NCBI GenBank assembly: GCA_964035545.1
Contig: OZ037770.1
Span: forward strand, 11,366,463 to 11,430,462
DNA: 64,000 nt
From: Bugula neritina
Lineage: Eukaryota > Animalia > Bryozoa
Direction of reading: 5' to 3'
In this document: positions 4,655 to 63,757 of the stretch, piece after piece
How the letters are laid out: each line of letters opens with the position of its first letter
How positions within the stretch are numbered: position 1 is the stretch's first letter
Translations under genes and position numbers: made by a program
The notes under the pieces: model-generated
What the model was told of the DNA's origin: nothing
The model's input: only the letters and a program-made list of their open reading frames with translations
The model's database searches: none

Positions 4655-7346
4655 TCATTCGTTGTCTTGAACACAGCAACAGAAAAACTTTAAGATTCGA
4701 TTTCTGCGATTCTGCTGTGTGGCTGGTTCTTGAACTGCTCTAAGCTCTACAAAATATTATAGTGCTTCTCTTGACATATACTGAGTGATGTATTATAGCA
4801 ACATGATCAATAATCATTCTTATTAGTTATATTTTATAATTGGCTACTTCACAATGCTATAGCCAATAAGAGTGAGTTTCTTTAAAGGTTTGACAGCCTG
4901 ATTCTAACTAATTTTTTTATAATTCACTCCTGTTTATTAGAAACTAGCTTCTTAATGTCTTAAGTAATTTTTCTGTTTGTTTGATATTATAAAACCCTAA
5001 ATGTGTGGTTTCGAAAGATTGGTTTGGTTTTATCTGGGGTTTGCTCATCAACATGCATAAAAGTATCCACTAATAATAAATATTTGGCTGACTTAAGAAT
5101 ACTTACCATTCTGAACTTCATTAGGTGCATTAGAAGGAGCTAGGAGTTGCGTCTCCTTGACTGATTGTTGGAGAATATTTAGAGAAAGAGTCTTGCATGA
5201 GTCTCCACCAGCTTCTGTTGTAAAATATATCAAATTTTTTGCAACTTAAAACTGTTGGTTTAAGACTAATATAATATTTGTTTCTAGTTGGCTAATTGCT
5301 TATAAGGAGAAAAATCTGTCTTTCCATTATATAGATTTGTAATAATTATTAGTTAGTATTGCCAATTTTGTAAATGAAAGTAGCTGATATGGCTTAATAA
5401 AAATTTACATATGGATCAAAATTTTTGATTGACATAATATTTTGTATATATCGACTGCACAATTGCAAGCTTTTAGAATAATATTTATCTCAAATGACAT
5501 CCTTAAGTGATTTAAATTTTGCTTCTTTGCAGATGTTTCCTAGCTTTAATATTTACCAGATAATTTGGAAGGTGTTGGGGGATTTTCCTCGGCAATTTCT
5601 TGATTTGAGTTAACATCCTGTTTCATAGACGTGTTTTCTTCATTACCGGTAGCATCTTCTTCCTGTTGTGGTGTGTATTCCATTCTCATTCCACCTATTG
5701 AAATAATGTTGTTTCAAATTATATTTTTTATATAAAAGGGCATAACCATATATGATTTTGTGAAGTATTAAAAAATAATGTCGTTTCAACTTACTCTTTT
5801 TATATAAAAGGGTATAATTATCTGAGATTTTTGTAAAGTGTTGATTAGTTTGACTGATAGTAAGTTATTAGTGCGCAGTTAAAACTCATTCATTCACTTT
5901 CTTTCATAGAGGCTATGTTTCCTTAAACTGTTGGATTATTCAAGCAATAAAATACATCATTTAGGAATCAAAAATTTGATATAATTTGATCAAGTGATAC
6001 AGTATATGGAAAAGTGACAGTTTTGGAAGATATTTACTAGCACCTGAATTTTGTTACCTTCTTTACAAATATGTAAAAAAAACAATTTATATTAAAATGT
6101 AGTTGAATATAAAATAAATACTTTAACAGCTTTCATTTTCTTACAAGAATAAATATTGACATGTTTTCTCACCAGGTGAAATCTGAGGTTTAATGGCAGC
6201 TCTTTGATTGGCCTTTTGTGCTTTTAGGGGTACTTCACTGAGTTGTTCAACAGCCTTTTTGATAATGTCATCAGCTTCCATCTGTTTGACTCCCAACTCC
6301 TTAATATCCCACTTGAGAGTGGCTATATCCTTCTTCAACTCATCTATTGAAATAACAGTAATTTGATTTTAAATTTTTTTGTTGCAATAAAAGGAAAAGT
6401 GTTGCTAATCTAATTTTGCAAAATTTATACACTGTTCAAACAAAATGAATGAATAATGTACCATCACAATCGGTGATTTTCTTATTCATATGATCCTTAG
6501 AGAAAAGTGGCAATGATTTCCATTCCATTCCATCCACTGAAGTGAATGTTTTTTTTATTTGCTTCTCCACTTGTCTGGGTGCAGTAATATGTTGTCCTGA
6601 TGTGCTCGTTTTATTTTGAGGGGATTGTCTTCTCTCCTTGTTCAAACCTTGCATTTGGCTTCTGGATAAGTTTGTGGCGGGTTTGAGATTTGGGTAGAGA
6701 ACAGTATCAGCATTTGCTGTAATGTTGCAATACAAATGTTTTTATTCTGAGACAAATTTGTGTTAAATATAGAATAAAACGACATCATAGATTTACAGTT
6801 TAGACTATCTGATGAACTGAAAAATTTAATGTAGATAAAAAACAAGCTGAAACAGAAAAAAGTGAGTAATTTTTTGAACTTACGCATCATGATTTCTGGC
6901 CAAAGGTGCAGCTTGTGAGTTTTGGGGCGTGTGCCACTTCCTTCAAATTTCTTTAGGAAGTCCTCCAACTTGATTGGCTCTGAAACTGGAGAATCGGAGA
7001 GAGGAGCTGCTCTTCTTGGTTGACTTTTGTTGATCTCTGATATCAATTGATCTTTGGCCAATGGGAGAGGAGAAGCTGTCGTGTAGGCAGCAGGCTTCCC
7101 GTGCCAGCAGGCACCGGCACATCCGCAGTCATTCCATGTCCAGCTTTTAATTTTGCCACATATTTGTGTATTAGCTTGAGTAGTCTTACAGGAACCCAAT
7201 TCTCTACACACCCGGTTTTCACTCGGTTTTACAGCTGTTATGACCTTGTTTGGTATGATGTCACATGAGTGTAAAGGGGCATAAGTTGAAAGAACCTCTG
7301 CCTTCTTTAAGTATCTCTCCTGTTTGTCTTTGCTGCTACCAAACAT
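4655..7346 (-). CDS. Uncharacterised (orphan) multi-exon protein, ~408 aa, mostly polar/low complexity, C-terminus RRNRILKFFCCCVQDNE
   Basis: Exons 7346-6884, 6716-6462, 6343-6173, 5694-5557, 5214-5107, 4746-4655. All five introns are GT-AG phase 1 and the joined frame is open for 1227 nt to TGA. The true start may lie in upstream micro-exons (~7528-7820). No family recognised. Confidence 0.7.
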
Positions 7347-8375
7347 TCAATAAGCACACATTTAGTATGTAAAGAAACAGTTGATGTTGCATTTATCTGT
7401 ACTACAATCTTATAACACTTAATATGTAGATCGACGTCCTAAAAATCCAACTTTTTATTTGAAATATACCAACATCTCAATGTTATTAAATTCATAGAAA
7501 ACATGTCTTCATAAAACTTCTTCTTACCCCTGAGCCCTGCCTTGTCTGCTTACAGCTCGACGATTTGACCAAAAAAACTCTTTGAAAACGAGTCTAAATG
7601 CAGCACAATCATAGCAAATTACCTCCCACTTGCTGTAACAAATAATTATCACACTTGAAGTAAATCTTTTCCTAATTTGAAGGTGGTAAAATCTTAACAA
7701 ATCAAAGCAAAAGCATCATAAAAGTGTCAAATAATGAAGATAACAGAGAATAACAATAAATATTAATATATATTATATTCATTGAAAAACTATTACTTAC
7801 TGATACACCTTGGCTGCCATGACAATGGATGCTAGCAGGAGAATTAGAGAAACCAGTATAAGCGAGAACATATTGAAGTTTATATTGTGAACAGTTGCAT
7901 GAAAGATTTACATTTTGTAGAAGCAATAATTAAACTGTCAATCTACAAACTCTGTAAACGCGCAATTAAGGTACCATTGTGTCACTCATTGAGTCATCCT
8001 TCATTATTGCACATTTTTTGAATATTTTGTTTTACTTATTTAATAATTTATTTAGATAATGATAGCAATTGTTTGTTTTGTTTTGAATTATTTTTATAGT
8101 GTACTTTGTAATAATTTGTGAGGCATTTATGATGTAAACCATTTACTAGTTTGTTAGGTTGAATCCTTTATCCTATAAAACACAGTATTTATATATAGAT
8201 ATAATAAGTGGGAGGAGCTTCTTTAATAAAAAAAATAACAATTTGTGACATCAGTTGAATGCTTAGGACAGGGGTATCCAATCCTTACAGAGCGAGGGCT
8301 ACACTGGAAACTTTATGTTGAGCTGGGGTCCACAGCATTAGCATTTTTAAATAACTTTCTTACAAATTCTTATGA
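6992..8375. repeat. Segmental/tandem duplication copy B
   Basis: Direct repeat of 1-~1415. Confidence 0.95.
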
Positions 8376-8579: not shown

Positions 8580-9163
8580 GTCTAGAAAGTTCTCTTGCAT
8601 CAATTACAAAAGCCCATTAACTATTTGGAACTGTCATTATTCATATGATATTATTCTAAAGTATAATTACATCACTAATCAACGTAAACAGGTTTTGAGC
8701 TATATTATATTGTCATAAATTGTCATGCCTTACTAATATAAGGAATAAAAGTGCAGGGTAACATTAAAGAGTACAATATCTTTTAAAGTACCAATTGTGA
8801 CAGCCTTGTAGTAATTAAAAGCATTAGCTCTAGAAAGCATTTGTAGTATATGAAATTATCTACCCAAATCAAAACTAGAACTTAAGCTATGTGGAACTTG
8901 CTAATTCCACACAAGATGGGCATTTTTAATTTGAACTCAAACTACTGAAATTTTTCATTTCAGAGTTTATTGAGAGAAGATTGGTTGGTTTACTCGGAAC
9001 TGACACTGTTTGTCAGACTTCGGTAGTCGTTATGTCCGACACACTTTGAGAGTTCATAGTTCAAGTTGAAACATTTATATTTCTTGTTGTAGAGAATATA
9101 CAGACATTTGAGCTCTACCATGTCTTTTGAGTTGGTTACATTACATAATATTATATAATAGTG

Positions 9164-17626: not shown

Positions 17627-26910
<9,284 letters not shown>

Positions 26911-39700: not shown

Positions 39701-42700
39701 ACCAGTGCACCGCCTCGTAAACAGAACGTTACTAGTCAGAGTCTATCCAACCACAAACACTAATGAGAGGTTGTGTCCTCGCTTGATGAATGTCACCAAC
39801 TAGGGGTTGAAGACGCTCATGTGGGTAGCAGCAGCATCATTTTCACGTTAGTCATACACAATCTAAACGCAGCATTTATTGTTAGCAACACAATTATTGG
39901 TGATACATGTGCACGGCCTAAAATAGATTTTTGACACTTTACAAAAGTTGACGGAGACTTAACATTGCGTGACGCTGTCCCGGCATCATTCAACATTTAA
40001 CTGGTGATGCTGCTGGCATAGACAACTTGAATTGACATTTGTATTTGACCCCTGCTGCTCATCCGTATGTCAACAAGTAGTATAGTCGACAGACGTGGGG
40101 AGATAATTAAGATATTAGAGATATATTAGACTTTTACATATAGTCTATACTCCTCCCTTGTACATGTCATGCACATTTCATCAAACACACCCCAATCAAA
40201 TCAGAGCGAACCCAAAACTCTATTCATTTGTGAGCACTTAACTTTTCTATAGTTTCTTTGCTTATATGATGTTAATTTTATTAGAACCAACACAAATACA
40301 ATTTTAGTGGAGAGGATGGTGATGATAATCCCGCAACATTAATACAGGCCAACTTGAATAGATCTAGTGATATTTCAACAAGCAATTATTAGTAACTAAC
40401 AGTGACTGAGAGTAGTGAGTAACAGTGAGTAACAGTGACTAGTAGTGAGTAACAGTGACTAGTAGTAACTAGTAGTAACTAACAGTAACTAGCAGTAACT
40501 AGTAGTAGCTAACAGTAACTAATAGTAGCTAGTAGTACTAATAGTAACTAGTAGTAACTAGTAGTAAGTAGTAGTAACTAGTAGTAAGTAGTAACTAACA
40601 GTAGCAGTAGTAACTGACAGTAACTCATTAACTAACAGCAGCTAGTAGTAATTAACAGTAGCTAATAGCTAGTAGTAACTAGTAGTCTGATTAAATGAAG
40701 ACTCAGCCAGTATAGATTTAATACTGTTGGGAAACTGGGGGTAACTGAGCAATTAAGAAGACAACTCTAATATAAGAAATAATAACCTGATAACATCAAC
40801 ATACAGGTAAAAATGAGGGGGGGAGTGATTTACTTACCGTCCTGATTGCCCCATTCCCAGGCAGGTCCTCGCTCTACTTTAGCTCCTGGGAAGATACCCT
40901 TAGCCTCTATTGTGCTGCTACCTTGTCGCTTACCAACTTTAACTCCCTGGAAACACAATCACTATAGTAAAATTATAATACAATAAATATAATACAATAT
41001 AATATAATAAAAGTTTATAGAAAATTTAGGAATATATTGACATTCACATAGTTTGACTGTGCAGTGCATTATGAGACACAAAACTCAATACTATAGCAAC
41101 TGTGTAGAACAAACATCACCATAATATATTATAGTGTGAAGCATCAGGAGTTATGCTCTCCCCAACTTACATCTTTATTATGATGACTTAATTAAAACAA
41201 ACTTCAATAAAACACCTGGAAATTCTTAGCATGACAAAATTGCAGAATGACAGACCTGATTTAATTCAAAATTTGAACATTTTTGTTGAAAACAATAATA
41301 AAATTTAAACAACAAAATATTTCGTAGTTGTCTGTTCATACACAGTGGATCAGTTAAGTAGACAAGACAACTCCGAAATTTTCCTTCGTCACCAGGAACT
41401 CAAACCTGTGATAAGTTTAGGCTTAGTGTATATTATATAAATTGTTTTGCAATCATTTTAAAACAATTTCTCTGTAAACTTTACACTCTAAACAACTTGT
41501 ATAAAATAGTAGAAACACTGTGTAACCTTAGAGTTGGCCGTGATGAACCTGAGGAAGGGGTGGTTGTTGTCATGTTTCCCAGCCATGTAGCACGGTGTGC
41601 ATAGATCATAGTCTTTACACTTGACACAGCTCCACTTGACCCCAGCAATGCCCTGCTGGTTGCAGGCATCACACACTACGTCCACGTGCTTCACACCTAC
41701 AGTCAACAACCAGCCGTGTGTATAGCCTTCTAACTACTACATACTGTATAGCCTTCTAACTAATATATACTGTATAGCCTTCTAACTAATATATACTGTA
41801 TAGCCTTCTAACTAATATATACTCTAACTACTATATACTGTAACTACTACATACTGTAACTACTATATACTGTAACTACTATATACTCTAACTACTATAT
41901 ACTCTAACTACTGTATACTCTAACTACTATATACTCTAACTACTATACACTTTAACTACTATATACTCTAACTACTATATACTCTAACTACTATATACTC
42001 TAACTACTATATACTCTAACTACTATATACTGTAACTACTACATACTCTAACTACTATATACTGTAACTACTATATACTCTAGGTACTATATACTCTAAC
42101 TACTGTATACTCTAACTACTATATACTCTAACTACTATACACTTTAACTACTATATACTCTAACTACTATATACTCTAACTACTATATACTCTAACTACT
42201 ATATACTGTAACTACTACATACTCTAACTACTATATACTCTAACTACTACATACTCTAACTACTATATACTCTAGCTACTATATACTCTAACTAATATAC
42301 ACTCTAACTACTATATACTCTAACTACTACATACTCTAACTAATATATACTCTAACAACTACATACTCTAACTACTACATACTCTAACTACTATATACTC
42401 TAACTACTATATACTATAACTACTATATACTATAACTACTATATACTCTAACTTCTACATACTGTAACTACTATATACTCTAGGTACTATATAGTCAAAC
42501 TACTTTATACTCTAGGTACTCTACAGTCAAGCTATTGCAGGCCATAGCTGTGATATATTCTACTTGACAAGGATTACAACATCAATACATTCAATCAACT
42601 GCGAGACTGCCAGTCTAGGGACTTGAAGGGAATATTGCTAAGTCTGGGATACTAGCAAATTCCCAACTTAGTAATCAATAGCATTACCAGCATGTCTCTC

Positions 42701-50818: not shown

Positions 50819-53586
50819 ATGAATCTTTTGATGCCGAAAGCCAAGTTACCTGCCTGTTACCTGCTGTACTTGTTTGTGCTCGCGGCTGTTCAAAACAATG
50901 TCGACGGTGTTGACTCCTCCGACATTGCTATTTTGCGGACAGTAGGAGTGGGTATGCCACACTCTTGTCCATTTGTATGTAAGTCACCTTATAGATTCTT
51001 AATTTTTAAGTTTTCATGTCTTCAATTTCTGTCCTCTGCTGCATGCATCACTCAATTTAGTTTTAAACAGTTACTAACTAGTAAACTATGTTTTGCCTGT
51101 ATTTATTTATGATATCTTATAATAATTCTGAATACATTGTTATATGCTGGTATGCAACAATTGGCCTAAAATTAAATAATGCTATATACATTTATTTGTG
51201 ATTCAGTCATTCGCTTAAATAGTCCTCATTATTTCTTGTGATAGTTCAAAGCAGCTATGAACTCTGAGTTTAACCGCAATTAATTTTTCAATCACGCTCA
51301 CACTAACAGATTTTGTTAGTAAAAATCATTATCTTTATTTATTGATGTATTTCACTGATGATTAAATCATCTACAACAGTAGAAATAAACTTCATAGTTA
51401 CCAGCTCTTAGAGCAAATAATTTTATACTAATGTTTTTCTTGTCTTACAAAAAAATATACTGCATGTCTTCATTCACTGTAACTAAAATATATATTTGTT
51501 GTGAGTTATTTTTGCGCTTACTTTTAGATAAAGCAAGAATGCCTTCAGCCCAGGATGGGCTCATCAACTGCACTTGGTATAGTAGTAATGCCTGCTGTAA
51601 AAGAACTGAGGTAATCCTGACTTGTATTTAGAAATTATATATTCTCTGTACACCTCGGAACAATCTAGAATAATTATTCTATGTCTTCCTAGAGTCTGTT
51701 TACAAAACCATTTAGCACTTAAAAATGAAGTTTGGCACCTTTTATATTAATTTTTTTTTAAATTTTTGTTTCGACATGTTATTTAACTGTCTGGAGCAAA
51801 TATAAAGAATACATACTTGTAGCATTATTTTTTTGTGCGTGTTCATATCTGATTGGCTTGTTTTGGTCTGCAATTTGTAAGCCCGGCTATGATTGGTTTG
51901 CTATATATGTAGGTAACTTCAGTGTTCTCTGGAATGTTGCCTCTAGACACACCATCCACTATGGATAAGACCACCGCCAAGCACTGTAGAAACCTAATGA
52001 ACTACATGATGTGTTATTTCTGTGATCCCAATCAGGCTAGCTGGTATAACAGGTGGGTGTTGATGTCCTTGCCATGGCAGGTATTACAGGTGCTTTCAGT
52101 GTAGCAGGTATGAAAGGTGCTTTCAGCGTAGCAGGTTTTACAGGTGCTTTCAGTGTAGCAGGTATGAAAGGTGCTTTCAGCGTAGCAGGTTTTACAGGTG
52201 CTTTCAGTGTAGCAGGTATGAAAGGTGCTTTCAGCATAGCAGGTATGAAAGGTGCTTTTCTTGTAGCAGGTGTGCAAGGTGCTTTCAGTTTAACAGGTGT
52301 GCAAGGTGCTTTCAGTGTAGCAGGTGTGCAAGGTGCTTTCAGTTTAACATGTCTAGCATCTAACTCATTATTATGATGTGTCATAGACTATATGTACTGT
52401 TGTGAAATGATGTGAGCTATAAGTTGAGAATTATTGATTAAAATGGAGTTTATAATTTAAGGATGTCTATAGCATAGTCTGTCCTGTTGTTTATTTCTCT
52501 GCAGGATATTTTTTAGCTTTTCAGTCTTACCATAAATGCGGGCACAATCTATTTTTTTGGCAGCTTTGGTAATTTGTTATTCACAACTTCATCTAATATG
52601 ACTCATAACTCGATCTAATCTAACTTGTAGATCTATCTAACCTAACTCATAACTCTATATAATATGACTCATAACTCTATCTAATATGACTCATAACTCT
52701 ATCTAATATGACTCATAACTCTATGTAATATAACTAATAGGTCTATATAATATGACTCATAACTCTATCTAATATAACTCATAACTCTATCTAATATAAC
52801 TCATAACTCTATATAATATGACTCATAACTCTATCTAATATAACTCATAACTCTATCTAATATAACTCATAACTCTATCTAATATAACTCATAACTCTAT
52901 ATAATATGACTCATAACTCTATATAATATAACTATATAATAGGACTAATAACTCCAATATATATCATAACTCTTCCTGATAAAACTTGTGTTTTGTGTTG
53001 TAGAACTCTACATGTCTGTGAAGGATTTTGTGATGATGTCTACAGTTATTGTGGTAAAGCGGGATACAGTGGTAAAACTATAGGTCAGTTGCAAAACAAT
53101 GTAATATCTCACACAATTGTATTATTTTTGTAATGTTGATCAATAATATCAAATAATATTGGAAATGGCCTACAAAACTAAACATAAGATCCGATTACTG
53201 TTCATTGAATTCGCTGCTAAGCCTATCATGCTGTCTTTTACTGATAGCCTTGTTGTCGCTTTGATATATGGAAATACAGGATCGTTACTGTATATCATCA
53301 TGGGAGCATAGGATAGTATTATGTAGTGCTAATGAGTACCACCATGCATCTCCACCCGCTTTATGTTGATGAATTCTGCTAGGTTGTCCTTTACCTGATG
53401 TGATTTGTCTGTGCAGGTGAACAGTTCGCATCTGGTGCGGAGTTCTGTGAAGCTCAGACATTTAGAGTGATTCCAGGAGACCAGCAGTGCTTCAAGTTTG
53501 ATCCAACAGTGTTTGATGCAAGTGAAAGGGTTGCGCAAAGTTTCTTACTGATGATTTTTTGTGTTTTAGTGTTTATTCTGCACTAG
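50819..53586 (+). CDS. Folate receptor / riboflavin-binding-protein-like Cys-rich protein, ~210 aa, signal peptide and GPI-type hydrophobic tail
   Basis: Exons 50819-50978, 51528-51610, 51913-52052, 53004-53083, 53417-53586 join in frame. Cys pattern C.WY...ACC / C...M..MMC.FC.P.Q / VC..FCD..Y..C / FC / CF is typical of the Folate_rec fold; C-terminal FLLMIFCVLVFILH. Confidence 0.8.
52078..52350. repeat. 27-bp minisatellite (GCAGGTATGAAAGGTGCTTTCAGTGTA), ~10 copies
   Basis: Intronic, directly after the exon 3 donor; explains the repeat ORFs at 52032-52384. Confidence 0.92.
52590..52960. repeat. 22-bp minisatellite (ATAACTCTATCTAATATGACTC)
   Basis: Direct inspection. Confidence 0.9.
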
Positions 53587-54755: not shown

Positions 54756-55309
54756 CAATGGCCATACTTGATAATTAATTAAGTTGTTATATTAAGATTC
54801 AGTATGCTAATAAATAGCTTCATAAACTCAATTTTGTAATTTTTGCACTGCAATTTATCTTAGTAGACAAAGCTAGTAATATATAATATTAGCATCTGCA
54901 TCCTACAACAAAAGTTGAACCTATTTTATATTATATTTTACAATATTCAGTTTTAAATATTTCATATCACCACTTATCAGGTAAAGCCACCTGCCATATC
55001 TATACCGCTAGATTATGGTGGGTGGGTTTATTTGTTAGACATAAAATCTGTGTGCATTGCTAGATAAGCCAGTACAAAAGGGCAAACTGACAAAAATCAA
55101 CTCAAAGGTTATTTAAACTAATTAACTGGAGTATATAATTTAAAGAACCTGTTTATGGGCTGTTGGCTCAGGGTTTGAAATGAATCAGACGATGAACCTT
55201 CGTAACATAGACCATAGTATACATGCACCTTCCTCTATATGTTGTGGTAGCTTGTAGCGCAGAACACAGCTATTTGCACCTGTATTATTGAAAGGGCCTC
55301 CGACACCTG

Positions 55310-55662
55310 TGTAGTGAGTAGTGCAAAGTACAAATACGGGAATCGCCCTCTCCCTACTCTTGGAATACTTAGACCCTTATGTAGCAACCAATTAGCAGCT
55401 CCGGAAGATATGCTTCCGATTCACGTGACACTTCCCGGGTTATTAACATTATACCATGTTGTTGTAAGCGGAGGCTTGTAGTAGTAACATGTGTTAGTAG
55501 TTGACTCTTGTATAGGATAATTTGATGTGATGTTTGGTTTATGCTTTATTGTGGATAATAAATATAATTACTCGACAGCTACCCTAGTAATTGATAACAG
55601 AATAACCAGCTAACTATACGCAAGTAAATAACTCACGCTCAGTAATTGCACAAATTACTACA
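55310..55662 (+). repeat. 5' LTR (353 bp)
   Basis: Identical by eye to the 3' LTR; AATAAA at 55557-55562. Confidence 0.97.
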
Positions 55663-55663
55663 G

Positions 55664-55681
55664 TGGTGGCAGCAGTGGGAT
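55664..55681 (+). other. Primer-binding site, complementary to a tRNA-Leu 3' end
   Basis: TGGTGGCAGCAGTGGGAT one base after the LTR; matches the known tRNA-Leu type PBS TGGTGGCAGCGGTGGGAT. Confidence 0.8.
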
Positions 55682-55697
55682 CTTGCGTATAGCAGTC

Positions 55698-56648
55698 ATG
55701 GCAGAAGACGGCACGGAGCTACCCATTCCACTGAATGAAGGTGAGAGAGATAATGTTGATATACCGGTGGAACCAGTGGTGTTAGATGAAGAAGTGAGAA
55801 TTCTTAGAGAGCATGGTGAAAATAGATACCGGCTGAAGGCACCCACCTTCACCGGCGAAGAAGCAGTGGAGCAGTTTATCCAAGAATTCCAGGATGTGAC
55901 GGAGATTGCAGAATGGCCGCCAAGGGTGGCGTTGCTAAAGCTCAGGATGGCGCTGACGGGCAAAGCTAAGCCGTACGGAGCGGGACCTGACATAGACGGA
56001 ATCTTTGCTTCCCTGCGGGCCCGTTTTGGCATCTCTCCCATAGATGCGCGGGCCCGTCTACAGAGGATGCGGCGTGATCCTCACACGTCACTAGAAGAGC
56101 ACGCTGCCACGGTGTACCCACTAGCGCAGATTGCATTCCGCGATCTGCCTCCGGTACACCGTGAGAGGTATACTTATGATGCCTTCGTGCAGTCCATCAA
56201 CGACTTGGGGCTCCACCATCAACTCCAAGCGAGGGGAGTCACCACAGTCGAAGATGCACTTGCGGTGGGAGAAGCCTACCTCTTGGCGACTCATATGCAC
56301 CGCAACCGCGTGGCCTCCCGCCAGGTGACCACGGAGCACTCTACTGCTCACGCCGAATTAGATGCGGAACCCTCCGCGGTGGCTAATGTGAACCAGATGT
56401 CACTAGCGTCAAAAATCTCACAGATGACTGACATGCTAGATAAACTGGTCACCACATTAGCTTCCCCAAGCCAGGTAGATACTGCCCGTGAGCCTAGCGG
56501 GCCGCAGGTACAATCACCAGGCATGGGGCACCATTTCTGCTGGGAATGCGGAAGGCCAGGACATTTCCAGAGAGACTGCCCTCAGCTCCCACAAGGGTTA
56601 AACTACCACGGCCCGCAGATGTTCCCACCTCCTGCGGGCCGTCTGTGA
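55698..56648 (+). CDS. gag: Gag (capsid-like region plus CCHC zinc knuckle), 316 aa
   Basis: ATG 55698; KAPTFTGEEAVEQFIQEF...W retrotransposon gag signature; CWECGRPGHFQRDC knuckle. Confidence 0.92.
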   Translation: MAEDGTELPIPLNEGERDNVDIPVEPVVLDEEVRILREHGENRYRLKAPTFTGEEAVEQFIQEFQDVTEIAEWPPRVALLKLRMALTGKAKPYGAGPDIDGIFASLRARFGISPIDARARLQRMRRDPHTSLEEHAATVYPLAQIAFRDLPPVHRERYTYDAFVQSINDLGLHHQLQARGVTTVEDALAVGEAYLLATHMHRNRVASRQVTTEHSTAHAELDAEPSAVANVNQMSLASKISQMTDMLDKLVTTLASPSQVDTAREPSGPQVQSPGMGHHFCWECGRPGHFQRDCPQLPQGLNYHGPQMFPPPAGRL

Positions 56649-58855
56649 ATTACCCAGGGAGGCCCGCGCGTCTGTCGCCCCGCTGGGCGCCGCGCGGAGA
56701 TGCTGTGAAGTGGCGACCCCCGCGGCAAGTAGGCTCCAGCCACTCGCCACCTGGGTCCTCTACGCCACTCCGGCACCAACACGAAGCCGGCAGACGGTTG
56801 ACCACAGAGCCTGCGAGGGAAACGGTACAGGCGCCGCAAGGCGTACCGCCCCAACCTCGGCAGCTGGTCAATAGTCGCCGCCAACCGTGGACCCCTCGAC
56901 CCACAGCGAGGGAGGTGCAACCACGGCACACACAATTGCAGCCACACGGAAGTAGCTACTTCCTACCAGGAAAGCTAGCCGGCAAGCCTGCCAACTTCCT
57001 CCTGGACTCAGGCTGCACCACCAACCTCCTTAGCCGTCAGTTCTTTGACACCCTCAGCGCTAAGGTCAAGGACAGGTTGGCACCGTATGAGGGGGATCAT
57101 GGCACCCTGGCAGACGGGTCCTGCATTCCCTTCTACGGCATTATTGAGCTAACTGGTTACGTCCGTAACCAGGCCATCCAAGAGACGTTTATCGTCGGGC
57201 AGCTCAACGAGGATGCTATCCTCGGGATGCCATTCTTACAATGACACGGTTGTCGCATCGATTTCAGTAAATCTGCGATGATCATGGGCGACAAGGAGCT
57301 CGCTTGTGTCGATAAGTTTGGTCGTCCTCTAGCGGGAGCAGTGCAGGTAGTACGGAGCTGTACTATACCAGGCCACTCCCGGGCTACCGTCCGCTGCAAG
57401 GTAGACGGTGGCCAAACCTCTAAGTTGGGAGTTGTCGAAAGTACGCACTCGAGAGTCCAACTTGCCCATAGCTTTAGCCGGCTTACGGGACAAGGAGAGA
57501 TCTCAGTGCAGTGTGTCAATCCCTTCTCAGAGACAGTAGACCTACCACCCAGATCCATGCTGGGTCGCTTTCATCCTGTCCAGGAGGAAGCCATTGGGCC
57601 GTCGTCGGGAGCTACGACGGAAGGTCCTCAGCAGAGCCCGTCTCGAGGGCGGAGGACCGTCCCAACCCACGCCTCCCCTCCTCCAGGGACGCGTGGCTGC
57701 ACAGGCAACGGGAAGCGCCAGGCTATGGCTAGGTTGCCACATGGGTACAGTGAGGCGTTCAGCCACACAGACCACGGAGCCCGCCTAAATAGAGCAGGCT
57801 GCCGTGAGGTACCACGGGCGGCGAGGACCGCCCCTGCTCAGCTACTCCAACAGAGGGCTGACACGCCCCCGGAGGCTGCCCAGAGCCTCCGCGCCAAACC
57901 TGTATGGGCTGGTAACGTTAGGGAGCTGCCGAAGCTCCAGGAATGCCTTCCTGGGGTGGTAGCCGACGTGTACCGAGCGAAACAGGAGGGGCGACGACCC
58001 AGTAGTACACAACGGCGACAGGGATGCGCCGAGTTACGGCTGTACTGTCAACGTTGGAGCTCTCTGCGGGTCGGGCCAGATGGTCTGCTAACCATGACCT
58101 TGGCCGCCAACAGCAGACAGCCAGCCAGGAAGAGGGTTGTCTGCCCAGTTGCCATCCGCCGGAAGTTGATACAAGACACCCACGAGGAGACTCACGGAGG
58201 AGTCCAAGGGGTGGTCACCAAGCTACAACTCCGGTGGTACTGGCCTAACATGGAACTGGATATCCGACGCAGAGTGAGACGGTGCAAAGTCTGCCAGACC
58301 AACAAGCATAGCCATCTCCCTGGTGAAGCGGGGCGGCAGACGCATTGTGCGAGAAGGTCTCGGCAGGCGGAGACTGTCAACCTGGCCGGAAACACCTCCA
58401 TGACACGTCAGGAAGACTTGGCGAGGCGAGAAAGGCCACTTCCGTCCTTGAAAGTGCGCTCACCGCCCCCAACGTCAAGCCTGCCATCATCACCACTTCC
58501 GGAACCAGAAACAGGTCCGGAAGTGCAAAAACCCCCCGTGGGAGGGGCTCCGCAAGGAGATACCAACATAGGACCAGGACCACACACTAGGCAACTTCCA
58601 GCGTGTCTCAGAGACTGTGTACGTGACCGCGGTATAAGCGGCAGTAACAAAAGTCTAAAGAGGCCTCGCATGGGAAAACAGGCAAAGAGCCGTGGGAGTT
58701 GTGATCACCACGAGAATCTCAACTTTTGCCTCGGCGGAATCTCACACGAGATTCATCCGCTGGAAGTGAAAAGCCCTAGTCACGTTTCACAACCACGCTG
58801 TCCGATCTTTTCCTATGTTGATGCAGTCGAGAGTAGACGTGCCAGTAAACAGTAA
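56597..58855 (+). pseudogene. pol: Pol remnant: aspartic protease, in-frame TGA (57242-57244), linker, integrase HHCC zinc domain and C-terminal tail; RT, RNase H and rve core deleted
   Basis: -1 frame relative to gag with a slippery-like G_TTA_AAC near 56597; FLLDSGC and AILGMPFL protease motifs; THEETHGG...WYWPNM...CKVC; no YXDD or DDE region. Confidence 0.85.
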
Positions 58856-58878
58856 TCATTTACCACTCTCATTCCAAA

Positions 58879-59931
58879 ATGTCTTACTATTCTGGATCGA
58901 AGGGTGAGTTAATTATGTTTTTGGTACGATAACTAGACTGCATCAGTCAGCTTAGCTACACTAGCTAGCTGGAGATTCGATAATGATAAACAGTGGTGGG
59001 AATACACGTCGACTTTGATTTTAAATAATCTGTCATAGCGAGTGTGTTCTCCATCAACTATTCATTAGCCTGAATCTCATGAGTGTAACTGAACAGAGTA
59101 CCGGTCAGGCTGTACACGCCGACGGTGCCTCAGTGTATAATCTTTAACACTGCTACTCTTTCAGATCACACTCGAGTGACCACCTCCCGGTCACGGGACC
59201 AGCCAACCTCTCTGTCTATGGAAGAAGAGCCTGTAATGGAGAATGGCATACCTGTAGTGCTCCGCCGACGACACCATTGGGTGTCACCCACAACAGAGAG
59301 GAGAATTGAAGAAGCCTGGGGACCCAGTGGACCACACCGAACCTGCCAGGTCTGCTTTGAGGAGTGCCCGTCACACCGCTCCCTGCGTTTACATGTAGAC
59401 GCCCATTTCCTGCTCCACTTCTGTCCCTGCGGGTTCCACGACGTCTACCCGTATCCCGTGACAGTACATAAGCTAAGCTGCTTCGACGGAGAGAACCACA
59501 CTGTTGATGAAGACAGTTTCCCCCTATACCTGGATGCCATCAAGCCAGTCATCAGGAAGGCTATCACCCTGGCCGCACTAACGTCAGGGTTTCACGTACT
59601 GCTACTATCTGCCCGCCATAAGTCCCCTATGGTTCAGGGCCCACCTCCTACCCCCGTCAACCCTAGCAACACCCCAGAAGTAGAAGAAACAACAATATCC
59701 CCTCTAACGGAGACCACTACAACCCCACCAAGGCCTAGCCAGCTGGCTAACGTAGAAGAGCGGCTTATGAGACTACAAGCCGAGTTCACACAACTTGCCC
59801 CTGACCTGCTGGATACGACGACAGGTCTATACCAGTTGAAGGACTCAGTGGGGCGACTGAAGAGGCGGCTACGGGCCCGACAGGCTCGACACAGAGCACG
59901 GTCGCTACAAGAATCAGAGTCCAACCAATGA
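58879..59931 (+). CDS. ORF3 accessory gene of the LTR element: C2H2 + C2HC zinc fingers, Pro/Thr linker, coiled coil, Arg-rich tail (~263 aa, predicted exons 58879-58903 + 59165-59931)
   Basis: Open frame 59125-59931 with CQVC-x12-HVDAH and CPC-x12-HKLSC; acceptor ctctttcag| at 59164; upstream ATG mini-exon ending G|GTGAGT in matching phase 1. Confidence 0.75.
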
Positions 59932-60213
59932 GAATGCCTGGGGTAGGCACCTTCGTTGAGCGATACTCGTTTGGAATGTGACGAGCGCTCCGACATTGGC
60001 CCGCGTGCTGGTAAGCACCCTCTCTCTTAATAGCTGACTAGATGTGTGTGATCGATCACCCTGTTGTCTTCTAATGTAAATGTTGTCGTGTTTAACTATT
60101 TCTCTTCTTACTCTTTGTGGGTTTACTTATGTATGTTTTTCTTTTTGGATTATTGTATAGTTTTTCATTATGTGTTTTTTTTATTGTGTTATCAGAAAGT
60201 AGGGCTTTCTGCT

Positions 60214-60224
60214 GGGGGGGACGG
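60214..60224 (+). other. Polypurine tract
   Basis: GGGGGGGACGG immediately before the 3' LTR. Confidence 0.85.
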
Positions 60225-60577
60225 TGTAGTGAGTAGTGCAAAGTACAAATACGGGAATCGCCCTCTCCCTACTCTTGGAATACTTAGACCCTTATGTAGC
60301 AACCAATTAGCAGCTCCGGAAGATATGCTTCCGATTCACGTGACACTTCCCGGGTTATTAACATTATACCATGTTGTTGTAAGCGGAGGCTTGTAGTAGT
60401 AACATGTGTTAGTAGTTGACTCTTGTATAGGATAATTTGATGTGATGTTTGGTTTATGCTTTATTGTGGATAATAAATATAATTACTCGACAGCTACCCT
60501 AGTAATTGATAACAGAATAACCAGCTAACTATACGCAAGTAAATAACTCACGCTCAGTAATTGCACAAATTACTACA
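60225..60577 (+). repeat. 3' LTR (353 bp)
   Basis: Direct repeat of 55310-55662. Confidence 0.97.
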
Positions 60578-60719
60578 CCTGATCAGGGCATGGGACTGAA
60601 AGGTGCACAACATTATTGTAAGCACTGAGCTGGAATAGATATTATTGAGTTCATTGATTTTAAGGGTCTATTCACAAGTTAACAAATTCATAGATCTCAA
60701 TTATATCTCTGAGAACATT

Positions 60720-61440: not shown

Positions 61441-62658
61441 GTAAGGATAAGGGGGGGGGGGGGGAGCACAACGGTCATAGGCGTACAAAAAGCCGGCCAA
61501 CTTGTGAGAGAACTTATTGACTTAGAGTTGTGATTTTTTTTCATAAAAAGGCATTGAAATAATTATTCAGCCATTATAGTTTCAACACTTGAGGAACAGT
61601 CGTGTTGAAGAAGTGGGTAAAAAACTGTTTTTACCTACCTTTTGTAAATGTTTTAAGATTTCATTAAAGCTTTATAACTTTTTACATTCAAAGGCAACAA
61701 GCCTAGATTTTACTGATGTTGTTGCCATTGCTTGTCTCTATATTGCTTAACTAGTACCATTGTACCCTAATCACTGTTATAAATTTGTTTGCCCAAAAGC
61801 TGGTTGAAATGTTACTAAAGTCTATAGATATAGTCATTTCTGACCTTTTTATAAAATATCAAAGACATCATGGTAAGACTACAAAACTACAAGGTGAAGC
61901 TCCCCTAATATATATACATCTGGTGAGGTTAAAGTTTTGCCATTTTATACGTAATACTAGTAGTAGATAGTCATGATATTCATTATGTATTAAATCATTG
62001 AGGGAATATACATGTATTTGACTATAAACTGCGTTTTGTTCGTTTGCTCCCGCCCCCCCCCTCCCTTCCGTACTCCAGCCACAAACCGAAGCCATGCACC
62101 TTAGCTACAAATCATAGAAAAAAATCCACTCGAATTTTTGTAATACATGTTACTAAAGTTTTTTCTGATAAAAGTTTTTCTGAAGTGAAATTAAAAACAC
62201 ATTTTTAGTTCTGAACAGTAATGATAATGGCACCGTAGAACTGAGTAATGTGCGTTTGATTTTGTCTTCCTCTGCTATCCGTGGTGGCACAAACTGTACA
62301 GCTAAAACATGAATGTCGCTGAAGGCCTGAAAGAATATTTTTATTTATTTGTAATATTAAATAAATAAAGATCAGATGCAACAAAATTTGCAAAGTTTCA
62401 ATATATTTGCTGTGTCCCACTCAGTGGCCCATTGTACCTCGGTACCAAGGCACAATGGGCCGATTTTTTCGTCATGAAAATTTCATTATTTTGAAAGTTG
62501 TGAGAGAGATAGTAACAACAAACTGATACCTGTAATAGACAACAGATGCAGCATTAAGACTAGAAATTATTGCACTAGTAACTTCAAAAACAGACGAATG
62601 AGAGCAAAAAATTCAAAATTCGGCCCTTTGTGCCCACCCCCCCCTCGGTTACCCCTAC
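61441..62658 (+). mobile_element. Non-autonomous DNA transposon (Tc1/mariner-pogo-like), full length ~1.2 kb
   Basis: TA flanks on both sides; imperfect TIRs GTAAGGATAAG(n)AGCACAA / TTGTGCCCAC(n)TCGGTTACCCCTAC; second copy at 1420-2607; no transposase ORF. Confidence 0.8.
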
Positions 62659-62875
62659 TAACAGTTTAACATAACATGCAGTCTAACCAATATGTACTAG
62701 CATGTAGTACAGGCTGTACTAATTATTGCAAGTACCAAAGAGTGAATTTTGTACTTTTTATGTTACAGTACCATGTAACAACTTCTTTACTATGCAAATC
62801 ATATTTTAACAATCTATTGTAGTAAGTCAGAAAATAACACAAACACAAAATACTAAATGCTCTCATTACAGTGAA

Positions 62876-63674
62876 ATGGCTGCAGCAAAAGAAGTTGAGT
62901 GTGGATTCTGTTTACTAAAAGAAGGTTTAGAGAATCCCAAGTGCCTACCATGTGGTCATGTACACTGTTTACTATGTCTTACTCGTAATGTTGATGTGAA
63001 TGACATGATCAGGTGTCCCTGGTGTAGGTAAGTTAGTTTTGTATAGGCAGAGCTGAGACATACTATTTGTAAAGAGTTGATGATTTACATCATATGTTTT
63101 ACCTTCCTCTAAATTATTGCATTCCATTATATATAGTTTCAATTATTACTAAATAATTATGGGTCTTGTCACAGGGAAGTGTTTGATGTGAGAGTGGAAA
63201 GTCTTCCATCTGCTGATGTAGTAGACAACTCCGTATCATGTGACGTCTGCACTAAGAAAGGGATAGAAAAAGTACCAGCAGTCATATACTGTACTGTGTG
63301 CCGGAAACTTCTCTGCAGAAAACATGATGAGGTGATACTTTCATTAAATATTTCTTCAGTTGATGTTCAACACTGCATACACTAACTCAGCCTCTGATTA
63401 CATGAATGTTGGTTTGTCAGAAAACATTTAGAACTCATATTTTACTTTTGTTTTTTGTTTTTCAATAAATGTATATTCTGCTATATTCAGTCACATGATG
63501 ACACCAATGATGACCACCAAAAGATGACCATCTCGGACTACAGAATACAAGCCAAGAGACTGGAGAAAAGAGTTTGTCCCAAACACACAGCATATCCTTA
63601 CTCGCTGGGGTGCAGAGTTTGTGTACAGCTGTTTTGTTTGAAGTGTGCTTCTTCGGGCAACTTGTGTGTTGGAG
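62876..63674 (+). CDS. TRIM-like RING / B-box / B-box E3 ligase, first three coding exons (3' partial)
   Basis: Exons 62876-63027, 63175-63331, 63491-63674 in frame. RING CGFC...PKCLPCGHVHCLLC...CPWCR; B-box1 CDVC...YCTVC...LC..H; B-box2 CPKH...C..C....C..C. Confidence 0.88.
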
Positions 63675-63757
63675 GTAAGAAAGTTCTGCTGAAGGTTAAT
63701 TCATATTTAGTTTAGTATATCTAATAAACTATATAACCTCTTCAGTGCGGGAGAAGT

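Follow-up and report, generated by a model that had tools for sequence, protein, structure and literature searches.

Our analyses suggest that the third open reading frame (ORF3) of a Gypsy-type LTR retrotransposon from the bryozoan Bugula neritina is a real, spliced and conserved accessory gene of an apparently undescribed family, for which we infer a function by analogy. ORF3 lies in a stretch of DNA of 64,000 nt, the whole of which was analysed and is referred to here as the window; all parts of the element described below are on the + strand.

Results

ORF3 is carried by a non-autonomous, Gypsy-type element of 5,268 bp (55310-60577), in which we found the hallmarks of LTR elements, i.e. 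TG..CA LTR ends, a target-site duplication, a primer-binding site and a polypurine tract. The 5' LTR of 353 bp (55310..55662; ends TGTAGT...ACTACA) is identical to the 3' LTR (60225..60577), the target-site duplication is CCTG (55306..55309 on the left and 60578-60581 on the right), the primer-binding site of 18 nt (55664..55681), which we take to be tRNA-Leu-like, begins with TGG, and the polypurine tract spans 60214..60224. The gag gene is an open frame (55698..56648) with a CCHC knuckle at the C-terminus (Pfam zf-CCHC, E=7.8e-6), and its end is overlapped by the frame of an aspartyl protease (56498..57244; Pfam Asp_protease_2, E=1.3e-5). Downstream of the protease, a pol remnant is open for 536 codons (57245..58855) and includes the zinc-binding H2C2 domain of an integrase (about 58145-58312; Pfam Integrase_H2C2), giving the order of domains seen in Gypsy elements. 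In this copy, a single stop terminates the protease frame and divides it from the pol remnant; most of the depth differs there in X1, the one public run in which the element was found and whose kind is not on record. Pfam gave no match for RT, RNase H or the integrase core in the element. A reading made earlier from the sequence only had all of RT, RNase H and integrase lost, and this holds for the three domains just named but not for the integrase as a whole, since its H2C2 domain is still present, as is the protease. A weak Pfam match of Gag to catalase (E 0.001, under the cut-off) was taken as noise. The region after the protease (57245-57640) is without a Pfam match and is presumably akin to the dUTPase-like insert known from some animal Gypsy elements; with this region in an open frame together with the integrase zinc domain, the RT-less family may retain a functional truncated Pol. 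Neither a full-length pol relative nor an autonomous partner was found among the 7,987 scored candidates of a search for pol relatives, which was a weak one, and there is no second copy of the element inside the window.

The depth in X1 is 108-126 in the flanks and 8,600-37,700 in the element, values that by the tool's own warning are no copy number. One contig joins both flanks, skipping 5272 bases, and thus represents the empty site, its joint supporting the target-site duplication. Judging from the depths and the empty-site contig, X1 would be genomic DNA, and its depth suggests that the element family is abundant; the insertion itself appears to be recent and polymorphic, and the identity of its LTRs indicates that it is very young. 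With identical LTRs, and with gag and the pol remnant likewise open, the survival of ORF3 in this copy carries little weight. The sequence-only reading had ORF3 surviving while RT, RNase H and integrase were lost and took this survival as an argument for a benefit to the element; ORF3 is not the one surviving frame, however, and the argument is not supported in this form. The evidence for selection on ORF3 derives from its relatives and not from this copy.

Elsewhere in the window, an exon with a RING-type Cys/His pattern (62876-63028) is followed by Cys-rich frames (~63180-63680), a region that by eye, without Pfam confirmation, looks like a host TRIM-type gene. A 1.3-kb direct repeat (1-1317 and 6992-8310; 98.6% identity, 7 kb apart) may be either the ends of another element or the product of a recent duplication, and a 0.7-kb dispersed repeat (1905-2608 and 61957-62659; 89% identity) lies outside X1 coverage. 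The tandem arrays at 41679-42400, 20848-21500 and 52023-52998, with periods of 16, 8, 27 and 22 nt, are ordinary satellites.

The frame of ORF3, which occupies the place that env has in retroviruses, is free of stops over 280 codons (59089-59931) and, read from 59128, encodes 267 aa followed by a stop. Its exon 2 (59165..59931), delimited from the ORF list, a splice-site scan and the boundary residues of relatives, has an acceptor that is shared between two candidate first exons. The predicted protein consists of a compact core (59233..59628), in which AlphaFold2 and the conservation of the ligands place helices, two fingers and further helices; a variable, Pro/Thr-rich linker that is predicted to be disordered (59620..59739; pLDDT <50); and a C-terminal heptad helix, a predicted coiled coil, with a basic tail at its end (59740..59931). 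Finger 1 (59344-59406) has the pattern C-x2-C-x12-H-x3-H (C2H2) and finger 2 (59422-59481) the pattern C-x-C-x12-H-x3-C. The frame, both fingers, the linker, the heptad helix and the Arg-rich tail had all been described in the sequence-only reading and were recovered here. Its verdict that ORF3 is not an env was upheld as well: the hydropathy maximum over 19 residues is 1.43, with the peak segment sitting in the core helices of the model, and values above 1.6 are reached in 10 of the 120 close relatives; ORF3 has no convincing TM segment and no Pfam env match, and the TM anchor and glycoprotein ectodomain by which an env is recognised are not found in it.

One candidate first exon is an ATG mini-exon of 25 nt (58879..58903; phase 1, A at -3, donor G/GTGAGT), which is followed by a GT..AG intron of 261 nt (58904..59164) with a branch-point-like TTAAC at 59144 and a pyrimidine tract. 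Mini-exon and exon 2 are in frame at the acceptor (59164/59165) and together would encode 263 aa; when the intron is read through, the ATG of the mini-exon opens a frame that ends after 17 codons. The GC content is 41% in the intron, 56% in exon 2 and 58% in the pol remnant, and in a strict pattern scan of the element the acceptor is among the 4 sites that pass and the donor among 6. In agreement with this intron, which had been predicted from the sequence, one X1 contig lacks exactly 58904-59164 (joint 58902^59164, GT..AG; depth 843), the junction resting on 28 letters on the short side where the tool's bar is 30-31. The joint is one of two in X1 at 94% likeness and among the 15 displayed of 49 at 80% likeness. 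Because both ends of the junction were predicted beforehand, a random deletion would rarely match them. If X1 is DNA, the loss of the intron reflects reverse-transcribed spliced RNA, and if X1 is RNA, it is the splice itself. In the intron bins of X1, the summed depth is 8,600-8,700 versus 843 for the joined form, a rough figure of ~10x, and by this measure, with depth being no copy number, most copies in X1 retain the intron.

Further observations concern the two boundaries. A diverged X1 contig, read by hand, departs from the window upstream of 58896, where it has an ATG seven codons and one base before the same donor. Among relatives that cover the acceptor, the boundary residues are S in 29 and L in 5 of 34, followed by D in 33 and G in 2 of 35, a pattern compatible with what a conserved yAG acceptor would give. 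The relative P0003 matches the intron sequence from 58908 on and therefore retains the intron. Separately, X1 has deletions inside the intron that end just short of the acceptor (59067-59155), namely 59067^59154 at depth 1478 and 59086^59155 at depth 294. A third possible start is an in-frame Met inside exon 2 (59218), which 65 of 89 relatives share.

The other candidate first exon is a Gag leader of 14 codons plus 1 nt (55698..55740) with the phase-1 donor AAG/GTGAGA; splicing from this donor (55740/55741) to 59165 would yield 269 aa. The earlier splice model had the mini-exon junction right and overlooked this in-phase donor, which is used in the same way in a relative, P0011. This protein, 63% identical to ORF3, starts with 14 residues, 12 of which are as in the Gag of the window, and continues as ORF3 exactly from the acceptor residue. 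The joining of the Gag leader to ORF3, present in P0011 and in that one protein among the 121 screened, would thus be a classic env-type subgenomic splice. It also solves a problem posed by the mini-exon, because the mini-exon ATG is >3 kb into an LTR-initiated RNA. The mini-exon might otherwise be supplied by an internal promoter or by splicing further upstream, where a candidate acceptor ends at 58826. X1 has no gag-donor joint at 94% likeness; at 80% likeness, 15 of the 49 joints were displayed in this check. In P0092, a pol-tail sequence is fused to ORF3, and P0011 and P0092 together link ORF3 with gag or pol in two further subfamilies. The intron loss in X1 and the P0011 fusion indirectly place ORF3 on a spliced mRNA, as for a Rev- or CERV-like factor.

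A word-indexed search identified 126 ORF3 relatives among 692 candidates, and the 120 listed of these 126, nearly all from JGI, have identities of 45-97%. When 50%-identity representatives were searched exhaustively, 85 matched at E up to 0.001, with identities down to 25-38%, and a profile search with the family alignment A2 yielded almost only close relatives among the matches listed. Over 119 close relatives, the region ahead of the fingers is 67% identical; the two fingers reach 69% and 75%, the stretch behind them 60%, the linker 36% and the coil 82%, and gaps are concentrated in the linker (6.5 per 100). The eight finger ligands are kept in 73/85 to 97/99 rows, and 8 of the 17 exon 2 variants listed for X1 are synonymous versus an expectation of 26-30% (in the core, 4 of 5), in what is a small, tool-selected set. 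In a core tree with few columns (unrooted; 74 of 76 sequences, P0095 and P0118 having been dropped as short), the 38 close rows are all on one side of a 100/99 branch. Together with the X1 junction, such comparisons support ORF3 as a genuine third gene of the element that is spliced, differs from env and has long been under constraint.

These data bear on the idea that ORF3 is a captured host gene travelling as a passenger without benefit, its open frame reflecting the youth of the family. The identical LTRs, the other open frames, the existence of host-annotated relatives and the many database relatives that are truncated or frameshifted could all be accommodated by this idea, the last being as expected of individual dead copies; it is nevertheless very improbable given that 38 of 38 close rows form one clade at 45-97% identity with constraint differing by domain, that gaps concentrate in the linker while the acceptor is conserved, and that synonymous variants exceed expectation in the small X1 set. 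The one-off neutral capture that the sequence-only reading had named among the cases that would overturn it is thus at odds with domain-specific constraint across the relatives. The coil being the most conserved part, the N-terminus that the Gag-leader form has in common with Gag in P0011, and the retention of gag, protease and integrase zinc domain as open frames would fit an ORF3 protein that assists the particle in its structure or trafficking, binding Gag or the integration complex via its coil or fingers. We regard this as unlikely: the shared leader is just 14 residues long, and the basic tail and the fingers suggest nucleic acid or the nucleus as the target.

Modelling of full-length ORF3 gave a poor result (pLDDT 62.5), in which the C-terminal region is one long helix, and this model was replaced by an AlphaFold2 model of the core (132 residues, 76-sequence alignment; pLDDT 92.7, pTM 0.85). 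A prediction of the coil as a homodimer scored 0.03 and gave no answer in either direction. Structure prediction and fold comparison, which had been suggested along with the first description of ORF3, returned a confident core that no solved fold covers: the fold search had no match at E 0.001 in the PDB or the viral library, and structural comparison found no Z of at least 5 among 48,161 chains, a lack of matches that does not show a new fold. The best structural neighbours among finger proteins are tandem C2H2 pairs with Z at most 4.0 over 51-59 residues, which is below the meaningful level; they include the DNA-binding pairs of Kaiso (Z 4.0, rmsd 3.5, 59 aligned) and SALL4 (Z 3.7). No Pfam family covers the ORF3 of the window; of the 33 alignment members, 12 match zf-C2H2_4 (E up to 0.05), the window's own protein not among them. 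Sequence matches in the PDB are generic C2H2 fingers only, plus weak coiled coils, and those in the ESM Atlas are unnamed clusters and generic C2H2 clusters only.

Classical C2H2 proteins read DNA with tandem fingers joined by TGEKP-type linkers. Finger 1 of ORF3 has the classical C2H2 pattern, and its profile matches are to fingers of HIC2, SALL and ZBTB proteins with E down to 2.8e-8. The pair as a whole departs from a TGEKP-linked tandem in that five mostly hydrophobic residues link the fingers and finger 2 is of the C-x-C...H...C type. Moreover, the core is net acidic (12 K+R, 17 D+E), and this acidity together with the Tyr/Pro segment of finger 2 makes for a poor fit to a canonical DNA-reading finger pair. 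Of the 121 close proteins, 68 carry the Arg-rich motif of the tail, many of the others being truncated, as against none of the 35 distant ones. The likeness to HIV Rev that had been seen in this tail is therefore reduced to a resemblance of four residues limited to the close clade, and the motif appears to be a clade-specific basic end of the coil with no sign of Rev kinship. Rev is not known to have zinc fingers.

The distant relatives include annotated bryozoan genes (Watersipora subatra XP_067940963/4 and XP_067944745; Bugula neritina KAF6037488), and among 30 proteins looked up by cluster, the named clusters were Watersipora subatra twice and Bugula neritina once. These bryozoan C2H2 proteins are about 20-30% identical to ORF3 and, like ORF3, have a module in which a W-x4-T helix, a C2H2 finger, a C-x-C...H...C finger and VD follow each other; one of them carries this module twice. 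Most end in a heptad helix as ORF3 does, and this C-terminal helix is present in distant relatives too. Unlike in ORF3, their N-termini are longer, acidic and bear [IVL]KxE motifs, and the helix of finger 2 is basic. These SUMO-type motifs are present in 7 of 35 distant versus 2 of 121 close proteins, and finger 2 has a conserved Tyr/Pro-rich segment in the element clade where the distant relatives have the basic helix. Scans of metagenome, viral and genome contigs gave nothing on the DNA flanking the relatives. Two distant relatives, P0203 and P0230, are homologous in their N-terminal part (307 residues; 36% identity), which is acidic and contains VKxE motifs, and their cluster-mates from other contigs start differently; these differing starts hint at a spliced, multi-exon paralog family.

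With such relatives, the ORF3 protein might act on chromatin, either as an activator of the LTR or as a decoy for the parental host zinc-finger family that relieves silencing. This would be in line with the canonical finger 1 and its HIC2, SALL and ZBTB matches, with the weak alignment of the finger pair to DNA-bound tandem fingers, with annotated Watersipora subatra and Bugula neritina genes being among the relatives, and with an element version that is without the SUMO-type motif of the host-like proteins and has kept the coil. We nevertheless find an action on chromatin somewhat unlikely, considering that the core is net acidic, that the basic helix of finger 2 is lost in the element clade, and that the bryozoan relatives may be cellular genes or ORF3s of other elements, either being possible.

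Discussion

According to the Cer1 study, CERV is produced from a spliced Cer1 mRNA, includes the env-position ORF, is needed for the export of genomic RNA, and contains a Cys finger as well as a predicted leucine zipper (PMC10309623). By analogy, we tentatively favour the possibility that the ORF3 protein is a CERV-like nuclear regulator that would favour intron-retaining genomic RNA. In this model, the ORF3 mRNA would arise by default splicing, with the donor being either that of gag or that of the mini-exon; the basic tail would take the protein into the nucleus, the coil would multimerise it, and the finger module would bind either element RNA or a host factor for export or splicing. ORF3 would then favour intron-retaining genomic RNA, which would be exported and packaged, a feedback on element RNA as that of CERV for Cer1, and RT and integrase would be supplied in trans by an autonomous partner. 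That most copies retain the intron implies that the packaged RNA would be mostly unspliced, which is the problem solved by Rev and CERV. Counting against this regulator, the intron-less form at depth 843 shows that intron retention is not required for spread, and a cis-acting RNA signal could explain intron retention without the ORF3 protein; the DNA-binding C2H2 proteins among the predicted structural neighbours, being weak, would count against it weakly.

The known systems differ from ORF3 in several respects. CERV is a protein of 517 aa in which H, M and G-protein-like domains and possibly a C4 finger are described, whereas ORF3 has 263-269 aa with a C2H2 and a C2HC finger; the CERV ORF is reported to have no obvious homology outside Caenorhabditis; and the function of CERV was shown, whereas that of ORF3 is predicted by analogy (PMC10309623). 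Features that ORF3 would have in common with Rev are the origin from a spliced RNA, a basic Arg-rich helix and possible multimerisation. The mechanism of Rev is summarised in the Cer1 study (PMC10309623). Neither CERV nor Rev appears in the database lists of matches for ORF3, i.e. Pfam, PDB sequence, Foldseek and VIA, an absence that would be compatible with undetected homology. Taking the RNA switch and the chromatin reading together, a nuclear regulator of one or the other type is probable.

A preprint is reportedly counted with the literature on extra, spliced ORF3s. As a kind, such ORF3s are already known, as passages of several sources indicate (PMC5408684, PMC7264820, PMC13524379, PMC8220671). 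LTR retrotransposons of bdelloid rotifers are described in such passages as having non-env ORF3s that encode a GDSL esterase or a DEDDy exonuclease (PMC5408684). Unlike ORF3, the extra ORFs of rotifers and plants are enzymes, TM proteins or antisense ORFs (PMC5408684, PMC7264820), and the terms 'zinc finger', 'Zn finger' and 'C2H2' do not occur in the text of the rotifer study (PMC5408684), nor 'zinc' in that of the plant review (PMC7264820). The env genes of errantiviruses, including the bryozoan gB-type, are, like ORF3, third ORFs of Gypsy elements according to passages of their description, and the joining of ORF3 to a short Gag-region leader in P0011 is a further likeness to errantivirus env (PMC13524379). 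By the same passages, errantivirus env has a glycoprotein ectodomain, whereas ORF3 has a zinc-finger core and no convincing TM segment, and the bryozoan env elements are ordered GAG-ENV-POL (PMC13524379). In the open full-text literature, as covered by titles, abstract starts and passages, we found no C2H2-type ORF3 described for an animal Gypsy element, which may nevertheless already be annotated, e.g. in Repbase, Dfam or GyDB, and full-text literature gave no match for bryozoan, LTR retrotransposon and Gypsy combined.

How such a gene arose is open to speculation. In a scenario that we consider doubtful as a whole, a Gypsy lineage would have acquired a gene from a host zinc-finger family, altered its finger 2, lost its SUMO-type N-terminus and connected it to two alternative first exons, the Gag leader and the mini-exon, giving rise to an independently evolved Rev-like switch or a decoy against the parental host family, of enough value that RT-less elements keep it. 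With the host-annotated bryozoan relatives, one may ask whether genes pass between a zinc-finger family and the elements that it possibly regulates. More generally, the export of genomic RNA and the roles of non-env third ORFs are settled for very few LTR retrotransposons, CERV being the worked case. With a small protein that has a confidently modelled core, two splice routes and natural intron-less copies, the ORF3 element would make retrovirus-like 'complex' regulation testable in an invertebrate retrotransposon.
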